This document shows, one piece after another, positions 1,425-24,737 of a stretch of DNA of 64,000 nucleotides. Origin of the DNA: an uncultured Candidatus Saccharibacteria bacterium (lineage in GTDB: Bacteria > Patescibacteriota > Minisyncoccia > Phycocordibacterales > JACOZG01); the NCBI GenBank assembly GCA_964651115.1, contig CAZYXJ010000001.1, positions 213,077-277,076 of the forward strand. Reading direction: 5' to 3'. How positions within the stretch are numbered: the first letter of the stretch is position 1; each line of letters begins with the position of its first letter. Made by a program: the position numbers and the translations under genes. The notes beneath the pieces were generated by a model, which was given only the letters and a program-made list of their open reading frames with translations, had not been told where the DNA came from and did not search any database.

Positions 1425-2759
1425 TTATAAATTTTGCAAAGGATTAATCATATTCTCCTGAATATCGGCCGCCTTGGTCATTACCTGATTGCCATAGAAG
1501 GTGTTGGCTGGAGCCCGGTCATCGCAAGGCCGGCCAGAATAATAGCGACAAGCCGCGTTACGCTCGGCCGTAAAACCGCCCGCTCCAGCACCCAAATCCG
1601 CCAAGTACAAAGAGGAGGCCATAAAAGCGTCGGCTGGCTCCCAGGGGTCGGCCGTCTTTTTACCTAAAGCGCTGGCGATCCTCGTTTTAAACAATTCCCA
1701 GGTCGAAGGGATAAATTGCGCTGGCCCCATGGCGCCACCCCAACCGCCGCCCCACGGACACGAGAGGGGCAGACCCTCCGGGCTAATTCCTAACTCACCG
1801 ACGATCCGCAAGAACGGCGCGTGGTCGCGAGTCGGCTTCATGATGGCTTGCCACTGCTTTTCCGGTGGATCGCCAGGACGATTACAGGTCCCGACGTTCT
1901 GGCCCAGGTTGGACTCTTGAGTCAGAATGGCCAGAACTAAAGCGGCCCGGACCCCCGTCTTTTCGGCGGCGGCCGTGGCATATTCCAAAGCCTTACCAAA
2001 CGGGATCGCCGCCGAGTCTCGCAGGGCAAAGAGCGCGGCCCTAATCTGAGCGGCGCGCTTTTGGCGTTCGGCTAAAATCGTCTTGTACGCCGCCTCTTGA
2101 GTCTTGTTAACGCTGAGCAAAACTTGCTTGTCTTTCTCTTTGGCTTGGATAGTTCGCTGTTCGGCCTCAATTAACTTCTGCGCGTCGAGCTCCTTATTTT
2201 TGCGTTCTTCGAGGGCCGCCTTCTCGCGCCGAGCATCCTCTTGGGCTCCGCGCATCTCGGTAAAAGCATCGTGAATTGAACGTTGCACGAAAGCAAAATC
2301 ATCTACGTCAGTAAAAAAATCAGACAACTGACTGTTGTCGAGCAAAATTTCGACAAAAGAAGCGTTGTCAAAGTCGCGGGTCTTACGCAATAACTCGCCG
2401 AGCGAACCCTGCTCCCGTTTAATTTTTTGGGCCAAAGTTTCGATCTTACCTTCGCGCGCGACAATATCGTCCGCCAAACGCGAGACCTGAACTTGCTTGG
2501 CCTTGATACTAGTCTGCGCTCGCTGGATCTGCGACTTAAGCAAATCAATTTCGCCTTGGACGGTAGCAGTATCGCGCTGTTTGGCTTGGAGCAACTTGGT
2601 CTGTTCGGCAATCGCCCGCTCCTCGGCCTCCAGCTCGGCCTGCAACCGCGCGCGACGCGCCTCAATCTCCTCCACACTCTGCGCGCCAACTGGCCGACTA
2701 ATCGCCACCGCGCCAGTTAGCGCCAACACCAACCCAAAAAAAATAATCCCCCGTCTCAT
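1425..2759 (-). CDS. Coiled-coil protein with C-terminal lytic murein transglycosylase (SLT/MltB-like) domain
   Basis: Start moved to ATG at 2759 ([16 protein letters not shown] signal). Long heptad-like coiled coil, then ILTQESNLG and [13 protein letters not shown] motifs. The track's Arg-rich N-terminal extension overlaps the L25 gene. Confidence 0.75.
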
Positions 2760-2802
2760 GTGGGGATTATTATAACAAATTTCTCTCGGCTGGTAACGAG
2801 GA

Positions 2803-3450
2803 TTAGGCAGCCGTGGCGGCCTCCTCGCCCTCCTCCACCTTCTTACCCTTCTTCTCAACCTCGATGGCCGAGAGATCAACTGGCGCCGTCTCAATTGGCT
2901 CATCCTTCGCGACAGCAATCGAAGCCACCACCTCCTCCGGGGCACTGAGAACCGTCACATCTTTGGGTACGCTCAAGTCCGAAACCAAAATTTGGCTGTC
3001 CAAAGAAACTAATTTAGAAATATCAACCTCAATATCGTGAGGAATGTTCATTGGCAAAACTTCTACTTCCAATTCGTAAAGCACCTTAACCAAAGTACCA
3101 CCGAGATCCTTAACGGCGGAGGCCACGCCCTCGAAGCGGAGGGGCACATTAACCTTAACCGTCTTGGTCTTATCGACAGCGTAGAGATCGGCGTGCAGAG
3201 GCTCGCCGCTCACGGGATGAACCATCACGTCATGGATCAAAACGTCGGCCTTAACCTCGCCGGCATCAATCGTTACCATACTCGACTCACCAGCCGTGGC
3301 GAGCAATTTTTTGAACTCCTTAGTATTAAGAAGAAGAGAGGTGGTCTCCTGCTTAGGACCATACAAAACCGCAGGCATTTGACCAGCTAATCGGACACTC
3401 TTGAGCTTTTTGCCGAAGACAGAACGCTTTTCGGCCATAATTTTTTGCAT
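2803..3450 (-). CDS. rplY: 50S ribosomal protein L25/general stress protein Ctc
   Basis: GKKLKSVRLAGQMPAVLYGPKQ N-terminus plus an acidic C-terminal extension. The start could be ATG 3438 instead. Confidence 0.85.
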   Translation of the reverse strand: MQKIMAEKRSVFGKKLKSVRLAGQMPAVLYGPKQETTSLLLNTKEFKKLLATAGESSMVTIDAGEVKADVLIHDVMVHPVSGEPLHADLYAVDKTKTVKVNVPLRFEGVASAVKDLGGTLVKVLYELEVEVLPMNIPHDIEVDISKLVSLDSQILVSDLSVPKDVTVLSAPEEVVASIAVAKDEPIETAPVDLSAIEVEKKGKKVEEGEEAATAA

Positions 3451-3497: not shown

Positions 3498-4475
3498 TTA
3501 AGCGGCCGTCACCAAATTGGGCGGCGTCTGGCCCGCCAGCGCCGCCAAAATATTGTCGGCCGCCAAACGAGCCATGTCGTCTCGGGTCTCAAAAGTAGCG
3601 GAGGCAATGTGTGGCGTTAAAACGACGTTAGGTAAATCCTTCAACCCCGCCGCCAGAGTGGGCTCATTTTCATAAACATCCAAGCCCGCACCGGCGATCT
3701 GGCCAGAACGCAAGGCCTCCACCAGCGCGGCCTCGTCAATCACCGGACCACGAGCCGTATTTACGATTACCGCACTCGGCTTCATTAACGCCAGCCGCTC
3801 GCGATTAATCAAATGGCGCGTCTCGGGCGTCAGATTAACGTGGAGCGAAACGTAATCCGCCACCGTCAACACCTCCTCCACCGTAGACTTAAACTCAGCG
3901 CCAAATTCTTTCTCAAATTCTTCGTTCCGCTTAACGTCAAAGTAGACCACCTTCATGCCAAAACCGCGGGACGCAAAGTGAGCCAACTTAGAACCAATCC
4001 GACCGGCGCCGACAATGCCAAGCGTCCGGCCATAAAGATCTGGGGTCAAAAAAATCATTGGCGCCCAGCCGACATACTTGCCGTCGCGGACAAATTGATC
4101 CGCCTCGACGATCCGCCGCCCCACCGCCACCAGAAGAGCCAAGGCATGCTCAGCGACGCTCTGACTGGTCGAGGGCGCGGGCGTGTTGGTGATCATCACG
4201 CCACGCTTTTTGGCCTCAACCAGATCAACGTTATCAAAACCCACCGCGTAGTTAGCAAAAATCTTCGCTGTCGGGACGGCCTCAAAAACTTCGGCATCAA
4301 TCTTGTCGGTCAAGAGCGGTAAAACGGCGTCATACGGCTTAGCCCGAAGCGCGGTTAATAACTCCTCGCGCGAGAGAAGGCCATCCTTAGGGCTCACGTC
4401 CACCTCGTGCCCCTTCTCGCGCAACATCTGTTCTGCCAAATCCGGAATTTTCCGGGTAATGTAAATTTTTCCCAT
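3498..4475 (-). CDS. D-isomer-specific 2-hydroxyacid dehydrogenase (glyoxylate/hydroxypyruvate reductase-like)
   Basis: Rossmann GIVGAGRIGSKLA, and RGPVIDEAAL...GAGLDVYENEP...PHIASAT catalytic-region pattern. Confidence 0.85.
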   Translation of the reverse strand: MGKIYITRKIPDLAEQMLREKGHEVDVSPKDGLLSREELLTALRAKPYDAVLPLLTDKIDAEVFEAVPTAKIFANYAVGFDNVDLVEAKKRGVMITNTPAPSTSQSVAEHALALLVAVGRRIVEADQFVRDGKYVGWAPMIFLTPDLYGRTLGIVGAGRIGSKLAHFASRGFGMKVVYFDVKRNEEFEKEFGAEFKSTVEEVLTVADYVSLHVNLTPETRHLINRERLALMKPSAVIVNTARGPVIDEAALVEALRSGQIAGAGLDVYENEPTLAAGLKDLPNVVLTPHIASATFETRDDMARLAADNILAALAGQTPPNLVTAA

Positions 4476-4487
4476 TTATTAATTGTA

Positions 4488-5504
4488 TCATAAGGATTCA
4501 ATTTTTCTTCTAAGTTTCCAACCATTGCCGTGATCCAATAAACCCAAATATGATTGAACTGTCTCCGACTTAACTCCTGCTTTATTTATCCGTTTAAACA
4601 TTCGTCGTCTTGTCATAGTCCGCAGAACACGATGTTTTGAAAATTGGACCCACCCTAGAAAATCAACACCAGAGGAAACTCGCTCGAGAAGAATTTTGTT
4701 GGGATGAAACTCTAACTTCAGTTTCTCTTTTAAGAATTCGGCAATTTCGGGTGCGAGCTTGACTAGACGATCTTTATCGCGACCAACAATGACAAAATCG
4801 TCCGCGTAGCGAAGATAATGCCTCGCTTTCAAGCTATGCTTCATAAACTGATCGAGCTCGTTTAGATAAACATTGGCAAAAAGTTGGGAAGTAAGATTAC
4901 CGAGAGGCAGGCCCTGGCCGGGTACGCCCGAATTAAAACTGTAAATTATTTTCTCGATCAGCCAGATAATACCCTGGTCAGGAATCTTTTTCCTCAATAA
5001 ATCGATCAGTATTGCTCGATCGATGCTAGCAAAAAATTTGCGAATGTCACACTTCAAAACCCAAACCATTTTGGTGTTGTTTCGAGAAAGCTTGGCCGTA
5101 ATTAGGGCAAATTTTTTAATTGCTTTGTGAGTACCTTTTCCGTTGCGACAAGAATAGGAGTCAGAAATAAATCTTGGATGGAAAAACCAGTAAAGCCGGC
5201 GATAAACGGCTCGATGTAAAACCCGATCACGCACGGATGCCTTATGGATCACTCGCCGCTTGGGGTCGTTAATGATGAAAACTTTGTAAGCCGAATGATG
5301 GTATGTCTTAGCCACTAAATCCTCGTGAAGTGAAATAATGTTGGCCATCAGGTTTCGTTCAAATTCCTGCACGTCTTTTCGATTCCGTTTCCCTCTCACG
5401 AATTCCTGCCAGGCCGCGAGCAGATTAGCGAGCGAGACGATATTGTCATATTTTATGGTAGGTGCTATCTTGGCCGAAAATGCTACCGGTAAGCCCCCCC
5501 CCAA
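4488..5504 (-). CDS. DGR-type reverse transcriptase
   Basis: RT motifs including YADDFVIV. Has LGNLTSQLFANVYLNELD (the [ILV]GxxxSQ variant typical of DGR RTs). Lies next to the TR/VR pair. The only in-frame start is TTG at 5504, inside a G9 run. Confidence 0.85.
   Translation of the reverse strand: MGGGLPVAFSAKIAPTIKYDNIVSLANLLAAWQEFVRGKRNRKDVQEFERNLMANIISLHEDLVAKTYHHSAYKVFIINDPKRRVIHKASVRDRVLHRAVYRRLYWFFHPRFISDSYSCRNGKGTHKAIKKFALITAKLSRNNTKMVWVLKCDIRKFFASIDRAILIDLLRKKIPDQGIIWLIEKIIYSFNSGVPGQGLPLGNLTSQLFANVYLNELDQFMKHSLKARHYLRYADDFVIVGRDKDRLVKLAPEIAEFLKEKLKLEFHPNKILLERVSSGVDFLGWVQFSKHRVLRTMTRRRMFKRINKAGVKSETVQSYLGLLDHGNGWKLRRKIESL
5494..5502. repeat. Homopolymer C9 (+) / G9 (-) tract at the RT start codon
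   Basis: Counted directly: aagCCCCCCCCCaacc. On the minus strand it reads TTG GGG GGG GGC. Confidence 0.9.
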
Positions 5505-5513
5505 CCGAAGTTA

Positions 5514-5906
5514 TTGCCTCTTTTGCAAAAGGTGAAGATTGCATACTTATTGTGGTATGAATATTACCAAATTTTGCCAAAAACACATCGACACTCACTC
5601 GGTAAGAAAATTGATACGTTGTGGATCGAGATTATCGAAGCCATTGCGATTGCAAGCTATTTAGGCAAAGGAGAGAAACAACCCTGGGTGAGATTGGCAA
5701 TAAGGAAAACTGATACACTCAAGATATTGCTCTTGGTACTTTGGGAAACTAAATCACTGGATAATAAAAAATATATCGCCCTGTCTTTACCCCTGGAGGA
5801 AATTGGCAAAATGCTTGGCGGTTGGAATGGGCAAATTTTGAGACAATTACAACAAGAACAATTAAAGAAAAACTCTCCCACCAAAGCAGGAGAGAAAATG
5901 AAGTGA
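5514..5906 (+). CDS. avd: Avd-like DGR accessory protein (four-helix-bundle, 23S rRNA-IVS protein family-like)
   Basis: 130 aa, all-helical pattern (KIAYLLWYEYYQILPKTHRHSLGKKID...IEAIAIASY...LKILLLVLWE...IGKMLGGW) with a basic tail. Wedged between RT and TR. TTG start at 5514, or GVG-type GTG at 5529. Confidence 0.7.
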   Translation: MPLLQKVKIAYLLWYEYYQILPKTHRHSLGKKIDTLWIEIIEAIAIASYLGKGEKQPWVRLAIRKTDTLKILLLVLWETKSLDNKKYIALSLPLEEIGKMLGGWNGQILRQLQQEQLKKNSPTKAGEKMK

Positions 5907-5907
5907 G

Positions 5908-6029
5908 TTGCGACGAAACGCAAACCAGTCATTGGAGTTACCGTAGTTCTCGAGCCAGTTGAGGTTCGCCTTGCGCCTCGAGTCGTTCCACCAAACGTTG
6001 CACGCCTGGCGATCGCCATCGAAGAAATA
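5908..6029 (-). repeat. DGR template repeat (TR)
   Basis: 122 bp matching 6408-6529. All 22 differences fall at its minus-strand adenines. In frame it carries seven AAY codons. Confidence 0.88.
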
Positions 6030-6275
6030 GTGTAAGGTGTCATCCGAGTCACCATCTCTTGTCGCCAACACAGGACGATTCGAGATCGAATATTATTCGG
6101 CATCTATAATGCCCTAGCACTCTACACCAAGTAGCTTCATTTTTTATTGAAGGATCTGCGTAAATCCTCCGTCGGAAATCGTAATCGCCGACGCTCTCAA
6201 TTTACAGACACTGGTTTCAGTAGCGAGCAACCCTGATCGCCCACATATTCACCTACTCCCGTCTTTAATTTTAGC

Positions 6276-6305
6276 AAAGAAAAATCCCACACGCGAAGTG
6301 TAGGA
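6276..6305 (-). terminator. Hairpin plus T-run downstream of the DGR target gene
   Basis: Minus strand: TCCTACAC-TTCGC-GTGTGGGA (8 bp, one G-U pair) followed by TTTTTCTTT. Lies 84 nt after the stop codon. Confidence 0.5.
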
Positions 6306-6388
6306 TTCCATTGTTTACGTTTTGGATTACGTTTGGCAAAAATTGCCGAAGAGCAAAATCCAAAGGATCTGAAAAATCTCCAAGGACC

Positions 6389-7048
6389 TTAGGCCTGAGG
6401 ACGAAGCTTGCGACGAAACGCAAACCAGTCACCGGAGCGACCGCAGACCTCGAGCCAGCAGAGGCGCGCCCCGCGCCCCGAGTCGCCCCACCAAACGCGG
6501 CACGCCAGGCGAACGCCAACGAAGAAACACTCCTTGGTGGCCACCACATACATCGGGTCTAATCCCAGTTCCCGATGAAGAGTGGGATAATGTTCGCCAA
6601 TAGCGAACACTTCTCGTGGGTCAGTGCGCTCGAGTCCGAACTGCTCCGCCCAAGCGATAGCCTTGCTCCAGTTGCCACCCCGTGGGAAGTTGAGAAGGAT
6701 GATTTCCTCCTCTTCTTCCACACCTTCTCCCGGCGGATACTGGTCGCCCACCTTCCGGACGTTGTAGTCCAAAGGAGTGTTGGGACCGGCGGCATTCAGC
6801 GCTTCCGACCACTTGCGTCCTTTGTTGAAGCGAACGCGGATCGTGTGGATGCGAGCGCCCGGTGGCGGGATAAGCGGTAAGCCAATGGTGATCGGTAGCC
6901 CAGCCTCGATTCCATCGAGAACACGACCCAGAGTTCCATCGTCAAGTGCCGTTTGCAGGCGGGCTCGACTCATCTTTTTGTCCCGTACCATTTGAACAAA
7001 CTGTCTTCCCTGACCATCGGTCGCGGTTACAACCTTTTCAGTGGTCAT
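6389..7048 (-). CDS. DGR variable (target) protein, C-terminal CLec/DUF1566-like variable region
   Basis: 219-aa ORF whose last ~40 codons are the VR. No N-terminal signal or TM segment. Scaffold reads ...VWWGDS...WFAFRR. Confidence 0.85.
   Translation of the reverse strand: MTTEKVVTATDGQGRQFVQMVRDKKMSRARLQTALDDGTLGRVLDGIEAGLPITIGLPLIPPPGARIHTIRVRFNKGRKWSEALNAAGPNTPLDYNVRKVGDQYPPGEGVEEEEEIILLNFPRGGNWSKAIAWAEQFGLERTDPREVFAIGEHYPTLHRELGLDPMYVVATKECFFVGVRLACRVWWGDSGRGARLCWLEVCGRSGDWFAFRRKLRPQA
6408..6529 (-). repeat. DGR variable repeat (VR)
   Basis: Copy of the TR offset by exactly 500 bp. 22 of 27 TR adenine positions are substituted and 0 of 95 other positions differ. Ends 17 nt before the stop codon. 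Confidence 0.88.
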
Positions 7049-7146
7049 AACTATACCTTTCTTAACATGCCCCCTTTAAGCCCCAGCCACAAGCTGAGAC
7101 CAGAAGCGGGCAAAATGCGTGTTTTACATCAAAGAACTACATTTAT

Positions 7147-7176
7147 AATATACACTCATTTATGCCGAGTTGTCAA
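7147..7176 (-). promoter_or_regulatory. Candidate sigma70-type promoter for the DGR target gene
   Basis: Minus strand TTGACA (7171-7176), N18, TATATT (7147-7152). About 95-nt leader. GAAAGG Shine-Dalgarno before the ATG. Confidence 0.3.
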
Positions 7177-7203
7177 GCCGGCTGAATCTGCTAGAATATG
7201 GCT

Positions 7204-8067
7204 CTAAATGTGGCTAAAAAGTTTTAATTTTTGCTCAACGAGCTTGGTCATTGCCGCCAGGGCTGGCTTTAAGAATTTGCAAGGCGCAACCTCATCAGGA
7301 TTTTCTTGCAACGATAGTTTAAGGCCGTCGCGGTAAGCCACGCGCAGCTCGGTATTGATGTGGACAACGGCAACACCACCCTCGATCGCGCCACGAAAAT
7401 CGCTCTCGCTATTACCCGAGCCGCCATGCAGAACCAGAGGCACACCCGCCGCCGCCCGGATGGCGGCAATACGCGCCAGATCGAGCTTGGGATCAGGTCG
7501 GCCGCGCAACATCCCGTGGATGTTGCCGACGGCTGGCGCCAAAAGGTCAACGCCCGTGGCCACCACAAACTCGGCGGCCTGCTCGGGCTTAGTCAGATCG
7601 TCACCGAGCGCGGCGCCAGCCGGCACCTCGTCGAGCACCTTCGACGAGGTGCCAATATAACCCAGCTCGCCCTCCACCAGCACGTCCCGACCACTAGAAT
7701 GCGCGTACTCCACCACCTTACGAGCGGTCGCCACATTCTCCTCAAACGGTAATTGCGCGCCGTCAAAAATAACCGCGTCAAAACCAGCGTCAATGGCCTC
7801 GACTGCTCGCTCGTAAGAATAAGTATGGTCGGCATTAAGAAAAATCGGGTAGGCAAATTGTTCGCGCAGACTCTTAACCAACGTCGCGATCTGCCGAACG
7901 CCAATAAAGTCTCGCTCGCCCTCCGAAACGCCGATGATCACCGGCAGAGAGAGAGCGCGCGCGGCATTAAATACTGCCCAGACCGCATTAGAATCCGAAA
8001 TATTAAAATGCCCCACCGCCACCCGACGCTCCGCCGCCTCTAGAATGTATTCTCGTAACGTTTTCAT
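7204..8067 (-). CDS. fba: Class II fructose-bisphosphate aldolase
   Basis: Start moved to ATG 8067 (MKTLREYILEA). VAVGHFN, FLNADHT, LVLHGGSG motifs. Confidence 0.9.
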   Translation of the reverse strand: MKTLREYILEAAERRVAVGHFNISDSNAVWAVFNAARALSLPVIIGVSEGERDFIGVRQIATLVKSLREQFAYPIFLNADHTYSYERAVEAIDAGFDAVIFDGAQLPFEENVATARKVVEYAHSSGRDVLVEGELGYIGTSSKVLDEVPAGAALGDDLTKPEQAAEFVVATGVDLLAPAVGNIHGMLRGRPDPKLDLARIAAIRAAAGVPLVLHGGSGNSESDFRGAIEGGVAVVHINTELRVAYRDGLKLSLQENPDEVAPCKFLKPALAAMTKLVEQKLKLFSHI

Positions 8068-8109
8068 GCCAAAAGTATACCACAGCCACTGCATGATATA
8101 CTGGAGGAC

Positions 8110-9108
8110 ATGGACACGACAGAACAATTTGACTTTATCGCCATCGGCGACATTACCACCGACGCTTTTATCCGAATTAAAGAGGCCGATATCCATTGCC
8201 AGGTCAACAAAGCGGATTGCCAGATCTGCATGCGCTTCGGCGACAAGATCCCCTATGAGTCCGTCACCGTCGTCCCGGCAGTAGGCAACTCGCCCAACGC
8301 CGCCACCAGCGCTGCTCGGCTTGGACTCAAGACCGCCCTCGTCACCAATCTAGGCGCGGATCGCGACGGCGATGAGGCGCTCGCCGAGCTAACCAAAAAC
8401 GGCATCAACGCCACCTTCGTCGCTCGCCACGCCGACAAAAAAACTAATTACCACTACGTCCTGTGGTATCACGACGACCGCACCATCCTCATCAAACACG
8501 AAGAGTATCCTTACCGCTTACCCGAGATCGGCACGCCCCGCTGGATCTATCTCAGCTCGCTGGGTGAAAATTCTCTGCCCTTCCAACACGAGATCGCTGA
8601 TTATGTGAAAAAAAATCCCTTAATCAAACTCGCCTTCCAGCCGGGCACTTTCCAGATTAAAAATAGCCGTGAGCTGGCCGACGTCTATGCCGTGACGGAA
8701 ATCTTTTTCTGTAACGTTGAGGAGGCCAAACGCATTCTCGGCACCACGGCAGGCGAAATAAAAGAGCTTCTCACTGGTCTCGCCGCCCTCGGCCCCAAGA
8801 TCGTGATCATTACTGATGGCGCGCGCGGCGCTTATGCCTACTCGGCCGAAACGGGCGCCTGGTTTATGCCACCTTATCCTGATCCCAAACCACCCCTAGA
8901 GCGCACTGGCGCCGGGGACTCTTTTGCCTCAACCGTGACGGCCGCTCTCGCGCTTGGCAAAACTCTGCCCGAAGCCCTAGCGTGGGGACCAATCAACTCG
9001 ATGTCGGTTGTCCAACACGTCGGCGCGCAAGCCGGCCTCCTGCCTCGATCGGAATTGGAACGCTACTTAGGCCAAGCGCCGACAGATTACACCGCCCGAC
9101 CGCTGTAA
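8110..9108 (+). CDS. PfkB-family carbohydrate kinase
   Basis: N-terminal GDITTD pattern and C-terminal TGAGDSFASTV anion-hole motif of the ribokinase/PfkB family. Confidence 0.85.
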   Translation: MDTTEQFDFIAIGDITTDAFIRIKEADIHCQVNKADCQICMRFGDKIPYESVTVVPAVGNSPNAATSAARLGLKTALVTNLGADRDGDEALAELTKNGINATFVARHADKKTNYHYVLWYHDDRTILIKHEEYPYRLPEIGTPRWIYLSSLGENSLPFQHEIADYVKKNPLIKLAFQPGTFQIKNSRELADVYAVTEIFFCNVEEAKRILGTTAGEIKELLTGLAALGPKIVIITDGARGAYAYSAETGAWFMPPYPDPKPPLERTGAGDSFASTVTAALALGKTLPEALAWGPINSMSVVQHVGAQAGLLPRSELERYLGQAPTDYTARPL

Positions 9109-9127
9109 AAAATTTGGCATTAAAAAA

Positions 9128-9154
9128 CCCGTCGCTCCCAAGCGACGGGTTTTG
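9128..9154 (+). terminator. Rho-independent terminator after the PfkB kinase gene
   Basis: CCCGTCGCT-CCCA-AGCGACGGG followed by TTTTGGG. Confidence 0.7.
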
Positions 9155-9234
9155 GGTTGGCGGAAGAGTGCTTCTTTCCCAACCGCCATTTCTTCTCCGG
9201 AAAGCACCTACAACGAGACGATCAGGACACCACT

Positions 9235-9660
9235 ATGTCCATCAACCTGCAAGAGACGGATCACCTCCCCCAAATCCAAAACCTCCATGACCAGCAAACC
9301 GTCGGGTTTGAACCTGACGCGCAAACCCTGCCCCGACCGATCAGTCACCCGGAGAATGTCGCAGAACGTTACTCCCGCGAACACCTCCGGAAACTGAACT
9401 CGGCACTGATGGAAATCCTCCTCGGTCGCCAGCCGGCAACCGAAGGGCTGACACATGGATTGGCCCCATTCTCCCAGACAGTGGCCCACATCAACTTGCC
9501 CATACACGCACACTTGGTAGACGCAAGTCGGTGCCAGAACGCTCCCACTCATACAGGTCTCCGTTCCTGTTACCAAAGAACAATCGCCTTACCAAAGAAC
9601 AATCGCCAGTCGACCGCCGACTGGCGCAAAAAGGAGAATAGCACACTCTCCCATCATTGA
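9235..9660 (+). CDS. Hypothetical protein (doubtful; Q/H/P/T-rich)
   Basis: ATG at 9235 with AGGA 9 nt upstream and C/G-biased third positions. A comparably long antisense ORF (9208-9576) and the odd composition leave coding status unresolved. Confidence 0.25.
   Translation: MSINLQETDHLPQIQNLHDQQTVGFEPDAQTLPRPISHPENVAERYSREHLRKLNSALMEILLGRQPATEGLTHGLAPFSQTVAHINLPIHAHLVDASRCQNAPTHTGLRSCYQRTIALPKNNRQSTADWRKKENSTLSHH
9570..9607. repeat. Perfect tandem duplication, 2 x 19 bp (TTACCAAAGAACAATCGCC)
   Basis: Read directly. Followed by a 9-bp-stem hairpin, CGCCAGTCG-ACCGC-CGACTGGCG (9604-9626). Confidence 0.9.
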
Positions 9661-9671
9661 CAAACTGTGGA

Positions 9672-10670
9672 TTACTGTCGCTTGCGAGCAATCGCCCGGC
9701 CGACCGCGGCCTTAATACTGCCCACGCCTAAACCATAATGATTAAGCAGTTCGTCGGGCGTACCAGACTGACCAAATTGATCATCAATCCCCACCCGGAC
9801 CAGCGGCACCGGGCATTGTTCGCCCAAAACCTCCGCCACCGCGCCACCCAAGCCGCCCGCGCGCTGATGCTCTTCCACCGTGATCACGGCGCCAGCGCCA
9901 GCTGCCCAGACCACCGCCTCCGTATCCAGGGGCTTAATCGTATGCATATTAATCACCGCTACTTCCGTCCCCGCCTCAGCCAGTTCCGCCGCGGCCGTCA
10001 AAGCAGAATAGACCATCTGACCACAGGCAATAATCGTTACTTGCGGCTTTTCTGGTTGGCGGAGCACATTGGCCCGACCAATTAAAAAGGGTGACTCCTC
10101 CGTTGTCACCACCGGCGACTTTTCGCGCGCGAGACGCAGATAAGCGGGGCCAACATAAGACGCCAGCGCCAGCGTCGCCTTGCGCGCCTCAATCGCGTCG
10201 GCCGGTACCACCACCGTCATCCGGGGTACGACACGCATGATCGCAATATCTTCGATCGCCTGATGCGTCCCACCATCTGGCCCCACGGAAACGCCAGCAT
10301 GCGAACCAACCACCTTAACGTTGCGATCGTTGTAACAAATCGTCGTCCGAATTTGTTCCCAATTACGACCAGGACTAAACATCGCGTACGAAGTTAAAAA
10401 AGGGATCTTGCCCATCGCCGCCATGCCGCTGGCGACGCTCGCCAAGTTCTGCTCCGCCACGCCAATCTCCACGTAACGCTCGGGAAATTTGTTTTTAAAT
10501 AAATGCATCTGCGTTGACTCTACTAAGTCGGCACACAAACCAACCACTTCGGCATTGGCCTCCGCGGCGGCGAGCAACCCTTCACCAAAGCCCTTGCGAA
10601 TCGGCACTCGCTCCACGTCGAGCTTAAAAAGTTTGGGATTTAATTTTTGACCTTCAACTAAATTATTCAT
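9672..10670 (-). CDS. Transketolase, C-terminal (pyrimidine-binding) subunit
   Basis: Start moved to ATG 10670, overlapping the upstream subunit by 8 nt. Pattern IRKGFGEGL...EIGVAEQN...GPDGGTHQAIEDIA. Confidence 0.9.
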   Translation of the reverse strand: MNNLVEGQKLNPKLFKLDVERVPIRKGFGEGLLAAAEANAEVVGLCADLVESTQMHLFKNKFPERYVEIGVAEQNLASVASGMAAMGKIPFLTSYAMFSPGRNWEQIRTTICYNDRNVKVVGSHAGVSVGPDGGTHQAIEDIAIMRVVPRMTVVVPADAIEARKATLALASYVGPAYLRLAREKSPVVTTEESPFLIGRANVLRQPEKPQVTIIACGQMVYSALTAAAELAEAGTEVAVINMHTIKPLDTEAVVWAAGAGAVITVEEHQRAGGLGGAVAEVLGEQCPVPLVRVGIDDQFGQSGTPDELLNHYGLGVGSIKAAVGRAIARKRQ

Positions 10671-11529
10671 GTTCGCCTTTGATCCGACCACTTAGACTGC
10701 GTAATTCTTTTAACGCCACCACTCCTTCCTCAGCGTTGGGCGGCTTGCCGTGCCACTCAAACTGTCGCTCAAACTGCGGTACGCCCTTAGACGGAATCGT
10801 GTGCGCGATAATGCAACTCGGCCGATTGAAAACCGCCTTGGCATGACCCACCGCTTCGGCAATTGATTCGAAGTTATGACCGTCAATATCTTGAACGTGC
10901 CAACCAAAGCTCTCCCACTTCTCCTTAAGCGGCTCCAGCGGCATCACCGTCTCAGTAAAGCCGTCGATCTGGATATTGTTGCGGTCAACGATCACAATTA
11001 AATTATGCAAAGCCTCGCGGCCGGCGAGCATCGCCGCCTCCCAGATCTGGCCGCAATTAAGTTCACCGTCGCCCGTGAGACAGTAGAAAAAGCGGTCACT
11101 CCGCCGGCCGCGATCCAGCCGGTCAGCCAAGGCCATCCCCACGGCCTGCGAGAGGCCCGAGCCCAGCGGGCCGGAGCTCGTCTCGAGCGCCGGGAGAAAC
11201 TCCCGGTGGGGATGGCCTTGCAAACGCGAACCAAACTTACGCAAAGTGACCAATTCCGAAACCGGAAAGTAACCAGCGTGGGCCATCGTCGCGTAAAGCA
11301 CTGGCGCGATGTGACCATTAGACAAAATCAAGCGATCGCGATCCTCCCAACGCGGATCCTCGGGCCGATGCTTTAACAAATGAAAATAAAGAGCGGTAAA
11401 AATGTCGGTCATGCCCAGCGGTCCTGCCGTGTGGCCAGAACCAGCCGCCAAAAGCATCTCAATAATCGACTGGCGGATCTGCTGCGCCTGCCGTTCTAAA
11501 AATTTTACTTTTTCGTCGTAAAGGATCAC
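10663..11529 (-). CDS. Transketolase, N-terminal (TPP-binding) subunit
   Basis: GSGHTAGPLG, LSNGHIAP, GDGELNCGQIWEA motifs. Confidence 0.9.
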   Translation of the reverse strand: MILYDEKVKFLERQAQQIRQSIIEMLLAAGSGHTAGPLGMTDIFTALYFHLLKHRPEDPRWEDRDRLILSNGHIAPVLYATMAHAGYFPVSELVTLRKFGSRLQGHPHREFLPALETSSGPLGSGLSQAVGMALADRLDRGRRSDRFFYCLTGDGELNCGQIWEAAMLAGREALHNLIVIVDRNNIQIDGFTETVMPLEPLKEKWESFGWHVQDIDGHNFESIAEAVGHAKAVFNRPSCIIAHTIPSKGVPQFERQFEWHGKPPNAEEGVVALKELRSLSGRIKGEHE

Positions 11530-12155
11530 AAATTTTGAAATTGCTTAATCGTCGCCGCCACATCCTCGCTCTCCCACAAGGCCGAACCCACCACCAAGCG
11601 ATCAGCACCAGCCGCTAAGAGCGCCGGGGCATTAGCCAACGTCACGCCACCGTCAATAGAAATTGTAACATCCGGAAATTGCTGTCGCAAAGATTTAATT
11701 TTTTCTTCAATCCCCGCCACCAGCGGCTGACCATGCTGACCAATGGCGGCGATACTCATCAACTGCACCAATTTAAGATTTTCGCGATAGGCTTCTAAAA
11801 CACTAAGCGACGTTGGCCACAACAGAGCTAATCCCAGCTGATTGGGGCGACCGGCGACGGCACCAAAAATCTGTCGCAGTCGATCGCTCGCTTCGTAGTG
11901 GACGATCAAACGATCGGCCCCCGCCAACCAACCAGCCAACTCTGTCTCGGGCTCCTCAATCATCAGATGGACCTCGATCTTAACCTTGCCAGGCACCAGG
12001 GCCAGATCGTCGGCGGTGCCCCACGTCTCCGGACTGGCAAAATGTCCGTCCGTCACATCAATTTGCACCCAATCAACCAAACCTTCGACTTGCGCGATCT
12101 TAGAAGTGATCTCTCGAAAATTTTTACCAATGATTGCCGGAATGATTTGCGCCAT
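11526..12155 (-). CDS. rpe: Ribulose-phosphate 3-epimerase
   Basis: Start moved to ATG 12155 (MAQIIPAII). Pattern WVQIDVTDGHF...VHLM...ISIDGGV. Confidence 0.85.
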   Translation of the reverse strand: MAQIIPAIIGKNFREITSKIAQVEGLVDWVQIDVTDGHFASPETWGTADDLALVPGKVKIEVHLMIEEPETELAGWLAGADRLIVHYEASDRLRQIFGAVAGRPNQLGLALLWPTSLSVLEAYRENLKLVQLMSIAAIGQHGQPLVAGIEEKIKSLRQQFPDVTISIDGGVTLANAPALLAAGADRLVVGSALWESEDVAATIKQFQNL

Positions 12156-12159
12156 AATT

Positions 12160-12627
12160 TTAAAACTGATACTCGGTCTGCCCCTCTTGATCAATCTTAT
12201 TAATGCGGCGGACGTGACGATCATCGCCCGGGAAATCGGTCTTGAGCCAAAGCTCGACCATCGCTAGCGCCTGATCCTCTTTAACAAAGCGGGCGCCCAG
12301 GGAGAGCACGTTGGCGTTATTGTGCACGCGCGAGAGCGTGACGATGCCCTCGTCGCCGCCGTAGTAAACGGCGGCCCGGACACCCGGATAACGATTGGCC
12401 ACCATCGCCTCGCCCTGGCCCGAACCACCAAAAATTAGTCCCCGATCTTCGTCCGGATTAACCGCGACCTGTTTGCCGACTAGGTGGATAAAATCGGGAT
12501 AATCATCATTCTCCTCCAGCGCGAACGCCCCCTCGTCGTGAACCGTGTAGCCCAAAGACTTTAGTCGGACCTTAACCGCCTCCTTGAGTGCGTACCCTGC
12601 ATGATCCGCCGCCAAAAAAATTTTCAT
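12160..12627 (-). CDS. rpiB: Ribose-5-phosphate isomerase B
   Basis: MKIFLAADHAGYALKE...GGSGQGEAMVANR is the typical RpiB/LacAB pattern. Confidence 0.9.
   Translation of the reverse strand: MKIFLAADHAGYALKEAVKVRLKSLGYTVHDEGAFALEENDDYPDFIHLVGKQVAVNPDEDRGLIFGGSGQGEAMVANRYPGVRAAVYYGGDEGIVTLSRVHNNANVLSLGARFVKEDQALAMVELWLKTDFPGDDRHVRRINKIDQEGQTEYQF

Positions 12628-24647: not shown

Positions 24648-24737
<90 letters not shown>

Follow-up and report, generated by a model that had tools for sequence, protein, structure and literature searches.

To our knowledge, the sole mechanistic model of how a diversity-generating retroelement (DGR) carries out reverse transcription comes from one phage element, in which the controlling RNA lies entirely 3′ of the template. 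Here we analyzed a chromosomal DGR at positions 4488-7048 of a 64,000-nt stretch of DNA from an uncultured Candidatus Saccharibacteria bacterium (contig CAZYXJ010000001.1; hereafter the window, numbered from its first letter). The element comprises a target gene ending in a variable repeat (VR), a template repeat (TR), an avd homolog and a reverse transcriptase (RT) gene. What is added here is a covariation-supported leader RNA between VR and TR, together with its apparent permuted relation to the RNA of the Bordetella phage element; the class of DGR itself was already known.

In the DGR of Bordetella phage BPP-1, the RNA begins with an upstream stop strand, TR, an Avd-binding stem-loop, a primer strand and a downstream stop strand, and continues with a short stem-loop, unpaired adenosines, a single-stranded thumb ring and an RT-binding stem (Handa et al., bioRxiv 10.1101/2023.10.23.563531). 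Synthesis of cDNA starts near the 3′ end of TR from a template:primer duplex and halts just before a stop duplex at the 5′ side of TR; these duplexes lie side by side, and TR loops out between them. The survey of other DGRs by the same authors, which included those of the candidate phyla radiation (CPR), covered 40 nt upstream and 100 nt downstream of TR, and the text of their preprint does not mention a permuted or upstream scaffold.

Among CPR bacteria, 90% of the DGR set has architecture B3, a TR-(avd)-RT core in which avd runs on the reverse strand (Wu et al., NAR 2018, PMC5758913). A Patescibacteria-restricted clade of DGRs ("DGR clade 2") has also been described, with targets lacking recognizable domains (Roux et al. 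2021, PMC8144416). The order in the window fits B3, with TR at 6029-5908 (minus strand), avd at 5514-5906 (plus strand) and RT at 5504-4488 (minus strand).

A first-pass annotation of this DNA, made from the letters alone, had proposed a complete DGR after finding two 122-bp copies, 500 bp apart, that differ at 22 positions, all of them adenines of one copy. Ungapped comparison of TR (5908-6029, minus strand) with VR (6408-6529, minus strand) reproduced these figures exactly, start-to-start spacing included, and the repeat was also found independently. All 22 mismatches fall among the 27 minus-strand adenines of TR (14 A>G, 5 A>T and 3 A>C) and none among the 95 other positions (P=8.6e-20, hypergeometric, for 22 mismatches all on 27 of 122 positions). 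The homology may reach one base more, to 6030/6530. Retranslation in the VR frame returned the strings given earlier, with seven Asn AAY codons in TR and 13 residues changed in VR after the first codon.

The 3′-terminal 23 nt, which resemble an initiation of mutagenic homing (IMH) segment, are identical in VR (6408-6430) and TR (5908-5930), and all three adenines there are unmutated, as had been claimed; the two other unmutated adenines of TR (5983 and 5950) are internal. As the copies are identical across this segment, there is no IMH/IMH* sequence difference to set directionality. From the last mutated adenine to the 3′ end of the homology is 24 nt, with a median of 22 nt over 64 related cassettes, and 91% of adenines inside the mutagenized zone differ, against a clade median of 60%. 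VR forms the last ~40 codons of the target open reading frame (ORF; 6389-7048, minus strand), an assignment already made from the ORF list and borne out by the coordinates. TR is non-coding, the sole ORF overlapping it being spurious (69 aa), and lies 403 nt from the RT start. Differences confined to adenines, a VR at the 3′ end of the target, a non-coding TR near the RT and an unmutated 3′ segment are thus all present, as expected of a DGR. Scanning both strands of the window with TR as query and each A as a wildcard revealed no VR-like copies other than TR and VR, and a second VR in the window was rejected because only these two known copies matched.

The RT gene (4488-5504, minus strand) encodes 338 aa, matches Pfam RVT_1 (E=1e-23) and contains both motifs named in the first-pass annotation, LGNLTSQ and YADD. 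Its best solved-structure match is chain 8ub7_A (E=5.8e-43, 150 bits, RT residues 20-307). We identified this chain as the Bordetella phage RT (bRT) because its aligned residue numbers are those named for that enzyme by Handa et al. Group II intron and retron-type RTs come next among solved structures, at E~1e-17 (≤5.7e-17) and at most 65 bits, so that bRT is the stronger match by 85 bits. Residues K39, F76, R84, I86, D153, L201, G202, Q207, D235 and D236 align with bRT K29, F66, R74, I76, D138, I181, G182, Q187, D215 and D216, which are named as template, dNTP or catalytic contacts (Handa et al., bioRxiv 10.1101/2023.10.23.563531). By this structure-library match and its motifs, the enzyme falls with DGR RTs: it is closest to bRT, carries GxxxSQ rather than the motif of group II introns and has an intact YxDD.

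We weighed the possibility that the locus is not a DGR, with an ordinary duplication lying beside an unrelated group II intron, retron or defense RT and the mismatch pattern arising by chance or compositional bias. The best NCBIfam name of the RT is indeed group_II_RT_mat (TIGR04416, 145 bits), weaker Drt and retron matches follow, and relatives of the RT are annotated "retron-type" or "group II intron RT" in several sources. However, NCBIfam is without any DGR RT model, and these scores lie far under the curated cut-offs (TIGR04416 145/300, Drt3a 68/200, retron St85 59/235, Drt2 44/390). Rfam searches returned no RNA, whether of a group II intron, a retron or another family, at E≤1 in 4000-7600, nor at the locus by gathering score in a search of the whole window. 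Group II intron identity was rejected on the missing intron RNA and the TIGR04416 score, and retron, DRT or AbiA identity on family scores far under the cut-offs and the lack of an Rfam retron RNA. With the bRT match so much stronger and the adenine-only pattern recurring in 64 related loci, this explanation is effectively refuted.

The avd homolog (5514-5906, plus strand, 130 aa) starts 9 nt from the RT start and is inverted relative to RT, TR and target. The first-pass annotation had recognized an Avd-like protein, which profile searches bear out, and had left its opposite strand unremarked. The ORF matches Pfam bAvd (PF22296) with E=1.6e-9 and 38.6 bits (cut-off 40) over profile positions 6-104 of 107, and NCBIfam DivGenRetAVD (NF033474) with E=1.6e-14 and 54 bits (cut-off 80). 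All 25 aligned clade members (25/25) match bAvd, the best with E=5e-14, and on these profiles Avd homology is well supported. Neither the single sequence nor the 25-member family profile matched any PDB sequence. Translation would start at TTG 5514 or, alternatively, at GTG 5532. Since avd and RT diverge across a 9-nt gap, the promoter of either gene must fall within the coding sequence of its neighbor; for avd, a promoter-like site occurs at 5443-5471 (plus strand), within the RT gene.

The target gene (6389-7048, minus strand) encodes a 219-aa protein with a predicted N-terminal three-helix segment and a predicted C-terminal C-type-lectin (CLec)-fold domain, in which VR would occupy the C-terminal strands. 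Of the earlier suggestion of a C-type-lectin/DUF1566-like fold, the CLec part thus agrees with prediction, and the sequence-family part does not: the target matches no Pfam or NCBIfam family at E≤0.1, DUF1566 and FGE-sulfatase included. Precomputed Pfam domains were found in none of 106 homologs, and the target matched no PDB sequence. Neither a signal peptide nor a transmembrane segment is obvious in the protein. Exact-sequence lookup returned no record of the protein, which is on record in a single contig. Across the family, hypervariable sites in the VR columns alternate with the invariant scaffold C..VWW..S.R.A.L.W..WFAFR. Target homologs of 52-56% identity occur in other genomes (L003 6001-6651 and L004 6001-6621), with RT, Avd and leader RNA all missing within 6 kb; either a distant cassette diversifies them in trans, or the family exists also without a DGR.

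As far as sequence and predicted structure can tell, the element is a genuine, complete DGR, and the first-pass reading is upheld by the repeat pattern, the bRT-like RT, the Avd homolog and the predicted CLec-fold target.

Related cassettes are abundant. At E≤1e-30, homologs of the RT number at least 8000, most of them in Patescibacteria/Parcubacteria records, and the nearest homologs of RT and target are found under the record names Patescibacteria, Parcubacteria, Paceibacterota or Taylorbacteria. Scanning one genome per species yielded at least 583 related loci, almost all in metagenome-assembled genomes of Patescibacteria. In 82 of the 84 loci examined, avd is directly upstream of RT and divergent from it. 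Sufficient upstream sequence was available for 64 loci, in which TR ends 2-25 nt from the avd stop codon and VR lies 363-566 nt upstream of TR (start to start). Pooled over these 64 loci, 1064 of 1149 TR/VR mismatches (92.6%) are at TR adenines.

The gap between VR and TR is 378 nt, and about 230 nt of it, from ~6262 to 6030 on the minus strand, form a conserved structured RNA, the leader of the DGR RNA. We searched the 64 loci for covarying columns and found six helices within this leader (6030-6262): P1 (6244-6240/6227-6223), P2a (6206-6199/6166-6159), P2b (6193-6188/6175-6170), P4 (6127-6116/6041-6030), the short stem-loop P4a (6113-6109/6103-6099) and P4b (6086-6083/6057-6054), all on the minus strand. 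A conserved single strand, GAAUAAUAUUCG (6098-6087), follows P4a and includes the invariant A6096, A6091, U6090 and C6088. The same search returned a long-range helix, P3, and a hairpin, P5.

Standard pairs occupy 91.7% of alignment cells, compared to 70.0% in shuffled alignments and 38-54% with the partners slid, although the helices were picked from the same alignment, which inflates the percentage paired. The compensatory counts are not inflated in this way: 789 cells are changed on both sides, against 225±18 in shuffles, and compensatory change is seen at 52 of 55 pairs (in P4, for example, GC:30/AU:25 and CG:30/UA:26). RNAalifold, run on a separate 54-locus alignment, recovered P4, P4a and P4b independently. 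A covariance model built from 54 loci found 10 of 10 held-out loci, with one match per cassette, as well as cassettes outside the prior analysis, including those on contigs of the closest target homolog. Its single match in the window is at 6024-6158 (E=2.3e-17), with none elsewhere in 308 kb. The window copy has five non-standard pairs among 55, compared to a clade median of 4.5. Minimum free energy folding of the 401-nt RNA as a single sequence gave z=-1.9 and recovered P1, P4a, P5 and part of P2.

The leader shows no 3-nt periodicity (0.94 bits), and its ~50 covarying pairs argue for constraint at the RNA rather than the DNA level. No Rfam 15 family matches it, and we found no mention of a structured leader in the accessible DGR papers, so that an earlier description elsewhere is possible. 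The leader would be an uncatalogued structured RNA family and possibly an undescribed RNA organization.

Two further pairings involving the leader were considered. Pairing of leader AAACCAGU (6216-6209) with TR ACUGGUUU (5929-5922) as a primer duplex was set aside because the leader segment is near-invariant while TR 3′ regions vary by target family (CUGG, CCGG, CCAG); the match probably reflects a Trp codon. Local pairing of CUUCA (6155-6151) with UGAAG (6139-6135) would compete with P3, the leader in this way mimicking the tail sequence, and may represent an alternative conformation. About half of the related loci have this hairpin, and those that do show no variation in it, which leaves covariation neither supporting nor refuting it.

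The long-range helix P3 joins the leader to the far side of TR. Its 5′ strand (6141-6134) pairs with ACUUCAUU (5897-5904, minus strand), leaving TR looped out; the 3′ strand overlaps the avd stop codon and is also seen as part of an inverted repeat. Compensatory changes occur at seven of the eight P3 pairs, and 87% of cells are paired; examples of the covariation are AAAUAAAC/GUUUAUUU in locus L031 and AACGAAGA/UCUUCGUU in L067. P4 reaches the near side of TR, its 3′ strand (6041-6030) abutting the start of the TR homology at 6029/6030. At the other end, the homology stops at 5908, 3 nt before the P3 3′ strand, which runs from 5904. One segment of the leader, AAUGAAGC-UACUUG-GUGUAGAGUGCU (6141-6116), contains both 5′ strands; in it, P3 is joined to P4 by the 6-nt junction J3/4 (UACUUG, 6133-6128), which includes the near-invariant A6132. 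A single "splint" therefore pairs with both flanks of TR, and TR is looped out. Covarying RNA is thus found at the exact boundaries of TR, in an organization that is general over ~64-84 cassettes.

Immediately beyond P3 lies P5 (5894-5873), a hairpin of nine pairs with a 4-nt loop, followed by a U-tract, UUUUUCUUU (5872-5864), all on the minus strand and antisense to the last avd codons. The hairpin was picked up by a terminator scanner and by covariation (helices 10-11), and the U-tract is conserved across the clade. Stem-loops of ~9 bp with a tetraloop occur just 3′ of TR in many DGRs (Handa et al., bioRxiv 10.1101/2023.10.23.563531), and P5 may bind Avd, end the DGR RNA as an intrinsic terminator, or do both. 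Read-through of such a terminator would give RNA antisense to the whole of avd and sense for RT.

Within the 45-nt tail, the avd wobble position is nearly as conserved as the other two (0.88, 0.93 and 0.74 bits). In five loci (L010, L011, L014, L044 and L060), the avd frame ends 5-8 codons sooner, in the P5 loop region, and the tail nucleotides beyond are still conserved. Together these two observations argue for RNA-level constraint on the tail. In this clade, Avd's C-terminal tail has the look of sequence overprinted on RNA elements, not of a functional peptide.

A different reading of the same region is that the RNA is organized as in Bordetella, with primer, stop strand and RT-binding stem all 3′ of TR in antisense avd; the leader would then be a regulatory 5′ element or a target or promoter signal acting at the DNA level. 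P5 does sit 3′ of TR, and Handa et al. report putative Avd-binding stem-loops and upstream and downstream duplexes in many DGRs, those of CPR included. However, P3 and P5 are the only covarying helices in the 150 nt 3′ of TR, and the conserved U-tract follows directly on P5. Past the U-tract, avd codon positions carry 1.03, 1.38 and 0.47 bits, and farther on 0.87, 1.18 and 0.33 bits; the wobble is free there (0.33-0.47 bits versus 1.0-1.4), with no extra RNA constraint visible. A Bordetella-like 140-nt spacer (Sp) hidden in antisense avd was rejected because the sequence past the U-tract evolves as plain coding DNA. Against this reading also stand the RNA-level constraint on the leader and the order of the leader elements, which matches that of the Bordetella Sp elements. 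We consider a 3′ scaffold at this locus quite improbable, and the 5′ leader scaffold the better reading.

From 5′ to 3′, the window RNA runs P3 5′ strand, 6 nt, P4 5′ strand, P4a, the single strand GAAUAAUAUUCG, P4b, a further single strand, P4 3′ strand, TR, P3 3′ strand and P5. If the Bordetella order is opened between Avd stem-loop and primer strand and its original ends are joined, exactly this arrangement results. By analogy, we infer that the CPR RNA may be a circular permutation of the Bordetella RNA, with P3 as the template:primer duplex, P4 as the stop duplex and P5 as the Avd-binding stem-loop. Patescibacteria DGRs in general would then use a permuted RNA: the scaffold would lie in a 5′ leader of ~230 nt, uncatalogued and present once per cassette in hundreds of genomes; the Avd-type stem-loop alone would stay 3′, as a terminator overprinted on avd; and TR would be a cartridge clamped by two helices. 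The parts moved 5′ would be a primer-like strand, a stop-duplex strand, a short stem-loop, a thumb-ring-like single strand and an RT-binding-like stem. This proposal, taken with its assignment of parts, is tentative, and our confidence in it falls a little short of even. A permutation would fit the inverted avd, as avd leaves no room 3′ of TR.

The three closest RTs, at 64-70% identity, are associated with three unrelated TR/VRs between the same conserved RNA flanks. Their TR/VRs end in ...WVFVSR, ...WWFAGRRK and ...WFAFRRK (L005 3897-4575, L006 4059-4605 and window 5908-6529, respectively), and TR and VR of L006 have only two differences. From these cases TR would appear to behave like an exchangeable cartridge.

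Signals for transcription were sought around the same elements. Upstream of the target, a promoter-like site, TTGACA-18-TATATT (7147-7176, minus strand), fits the consensus at 11 of 12 positions, as a pattern match only. After the target gene, the scanner placed a terminator-like hairpin and T-tract at 6281-6309 (minus strand), and a T-tract at this position is conserved in the clade alignment. An extended -10-like box, TGcTAAAAT (6268-6276, minus strand), is the putative promoter of the TR-containing RNA; in nearly all related loci the conserved leader is preceded, at a distance of 7-10 nt, by a TATAAT, TATACT or TAAAAT box. The DGR RNA would start at about 6262-6259.

Between VR and these signals, the post-VR region (6333-6407, minus strand) contains repeated C-Y-T-T-N-G motifs, a small hairpin and the target stop codon (6389-6391). 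Over the 64 loci, the motif occurs 1.94 times per 75 nt after VR, compared to 0.27 in shuffles, and the window has three copies. A post-VR stem of at least 5 bp is present in 55% of loci and 20% of shuffles. In many relatives (L005-L088), a small hairpin whose arms covary (GGATC/GATCC, AGGTC/GACCT, GGAC/GTCC) stands 22-30 nt past VR. A GC-rich inverted repeat or hairpin after VR is needed for efficient homing in Bordetella and Legionella; by the count of Wu et al. (PMC5758913), only 34% of DGRs have one. The post-VR motifs and hairpin may be DNA target-site signals for homing.

We propose the following mechanism. A minus-strand RNA of ~400 nt would be transcribed from the extended -10 promoter near 6273 and would comprise the folded leader (~230 nt), TR (122 nt) and a tail of ~45 nt, ending at the hairpin and U-tract (5894-5864). 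P3 and P4 would form the splint around TR, the 3′ strand of P4 ending at the TR start and P3 pairing the leader, 6 nt upstream of the P4 5′ strand, with sequence 3 nt past TR. The RT-Avd complex would bind this scaffold, and cDNA synthesis would set out from the 3′ end of TR, with the RNA itself probably priming in cis, as it does in Bordetella. The priming nucleotide would lie within or beside leader 6141-6128, A6132 being one example. RT would copy TR, misincorporating opposite adenines, and would halt at P4. The adenine-mutagenized cDNA would then replace VR, rewriting up to ~13 surface residues on the last β-strands of the CLec-fold domain. That the locus is a chromosomal CPR-type DGR, in the order target-VR, structured leader, TR, inverted avd and RT, is in our judgment highly probable, and that it works through an RNA scaffold in this manner is likely.

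The lack of any difference at the 95 non-adenine positions argues that the last homing was recent relative to neutral drift, and the cassette has apparently been active recently. A genuine DGR that is now inactive, recently silenced and with a VR that only records past homing, is the alternative here. Several observations fit such silencing and also weigh against the proposed mechanism. Metagenome contigs scanned for alternative VR alleles with an A→N pattern gave 0 matches; the post-VR stem of the window is weak, at 4 bp; and P4 of the window contains two A·C mismatches. The RT ORF has an unusual start context (TTG and then a run of nine G, with no nearby ATG, 5495-5535), so that its true start is uncertain or an assembly error at the homopolymer is possible. 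Other points count against the mechanism irrespective of silencing. Single-sequence folding of the 401-nt RNA did not recover P3 and P4; the Avd scores of the window protein are under both curated cut-offs; its single-sequence AlphaFold2 model, with four long helices, is of low confidence (predicted local distance difference test score of 64); and Foldseek with this model gave no significant match. Against silencing, the three ORFs are intact, every bRT catalytic and contact residue is conserved, the absence of non-adenine differences implies no drift since the last homing, and the RNA scaffold is paired as well as the clade median; the high share of changed adenines in the mutagenized zone also speaks for activity. 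On balance we think present inactivity unlikely, and favor a cassette that may still be able to diversify its target.

Taken alone, the DGR call adds one more example to a clade already abundant in CPR and changes little. As a clean and complete cassette with a very small (219-aa) predicted lectin-fold target, the element could suit reconstitution. If the CPR scaffold does lie 5′ of the template, the DGR mechanism tolerates circular permutation of its RNA, and tools for DGR finding or RNA annotation that look only downstream of TR miss functional RNA in the CPR clade. If two scaffold helices set the TR boundaries, this would explain the unrelated TRs in closely related cassettes and suggests a route to re-targeting.

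Several observations concern the surroundings of the cassette. The RT-avd-TR-leader module (window 4400-6200) has a G+C content of 0.40-0.46, versus 0.55-0.60 for the flanking housekeeping genes and the target gene; this composition suggests that a lineage of lower GC was the source of the cassette, though not of the target gene. In L008 (633-6622), a 69%-identical RT is found beside the same sugar-metabolism genes as in window 4488-12224, namely ribulose-phosphate epimerase, split transketolase (N and C), PfkB kinase and fructose-bisphosphate aldolase. The position of the cassette is not syntenic, as it lies at the epimerase end in L008 and at the aldolase end in the window. The single related locus laid out otherwise is L019 (1607-2270), a rearranged or second cassette; its Avd match, on the plus strand, lies 1.5 kb upstream of RT, and the leader RNA is matched on the minus strand. 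Elsewhere in the window, a 506-aa ORF (1425-2945, minus strand) has a ~60-residue Arg/Pro/Trp-rich stretch ahead of a normal-looking signal/transmembrane segment, and its listed GVG start is probably too far upstream; by eye, the remainder is coiled-coil-like with a C-terminal cell-wall-hydrolase-like domain. The sole Rfam family to reach gathering score in the window is a tRNA at 24651-24737 (minus strand).

Among the closest known systems, the CPR B3 DGRs have target, TR, inverted avd and RT in the identical order and orientation, and their RTs belong to the same very large Patescibacteria-dominated clade. Like the window element, they are chromosomal cassettes amid housekeeping genes and have a small target without a recognizable sequence domain and with a C-terminal VR. 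We see no essential difference, the target/VR type of the window being the one that ends in ...WFAFR[RK], and the window element is a further typical member of this known, abundant class. On the protein side, the solved CLec-fold variable proteins of DGRs (Mtd, 1yu0; TvpA, 2y3c) and the FGE/CLec superfamily are among the closest known systems.

The BPP-1 DGR (mtd-avd-TR-brt) shares with the window adenine-specific transfer from TR to VR, a homologous RT in which the catalytic and template-contact residues agree, an Avd homolog and a CLec-fold target with a C-terminal VR, the fold being predicted for the window. In both, the IMH-like segment at the 3′ end stays unmutated, a stem-loop follows directly 3′ of TR, and TR loops out between adjacent duplexes, two in number, of which one reaches right up to the 5′ boundary of TR, like the cPRT Stop. 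In contrast to BPP-1, the window element is cellular rather than phage-borne, the protein it targets, of 219 aa, is no tail-fibre protein, and its avd is inverted and lies between TR and RT. There is no 140-nt Sp 3′ of TR; a structured leader of ~230 nt stands 5′ of TR instead, and the splint strand that pairs with both TR flanks, downstream of TR in BPP-1, is upstream of it in the window.

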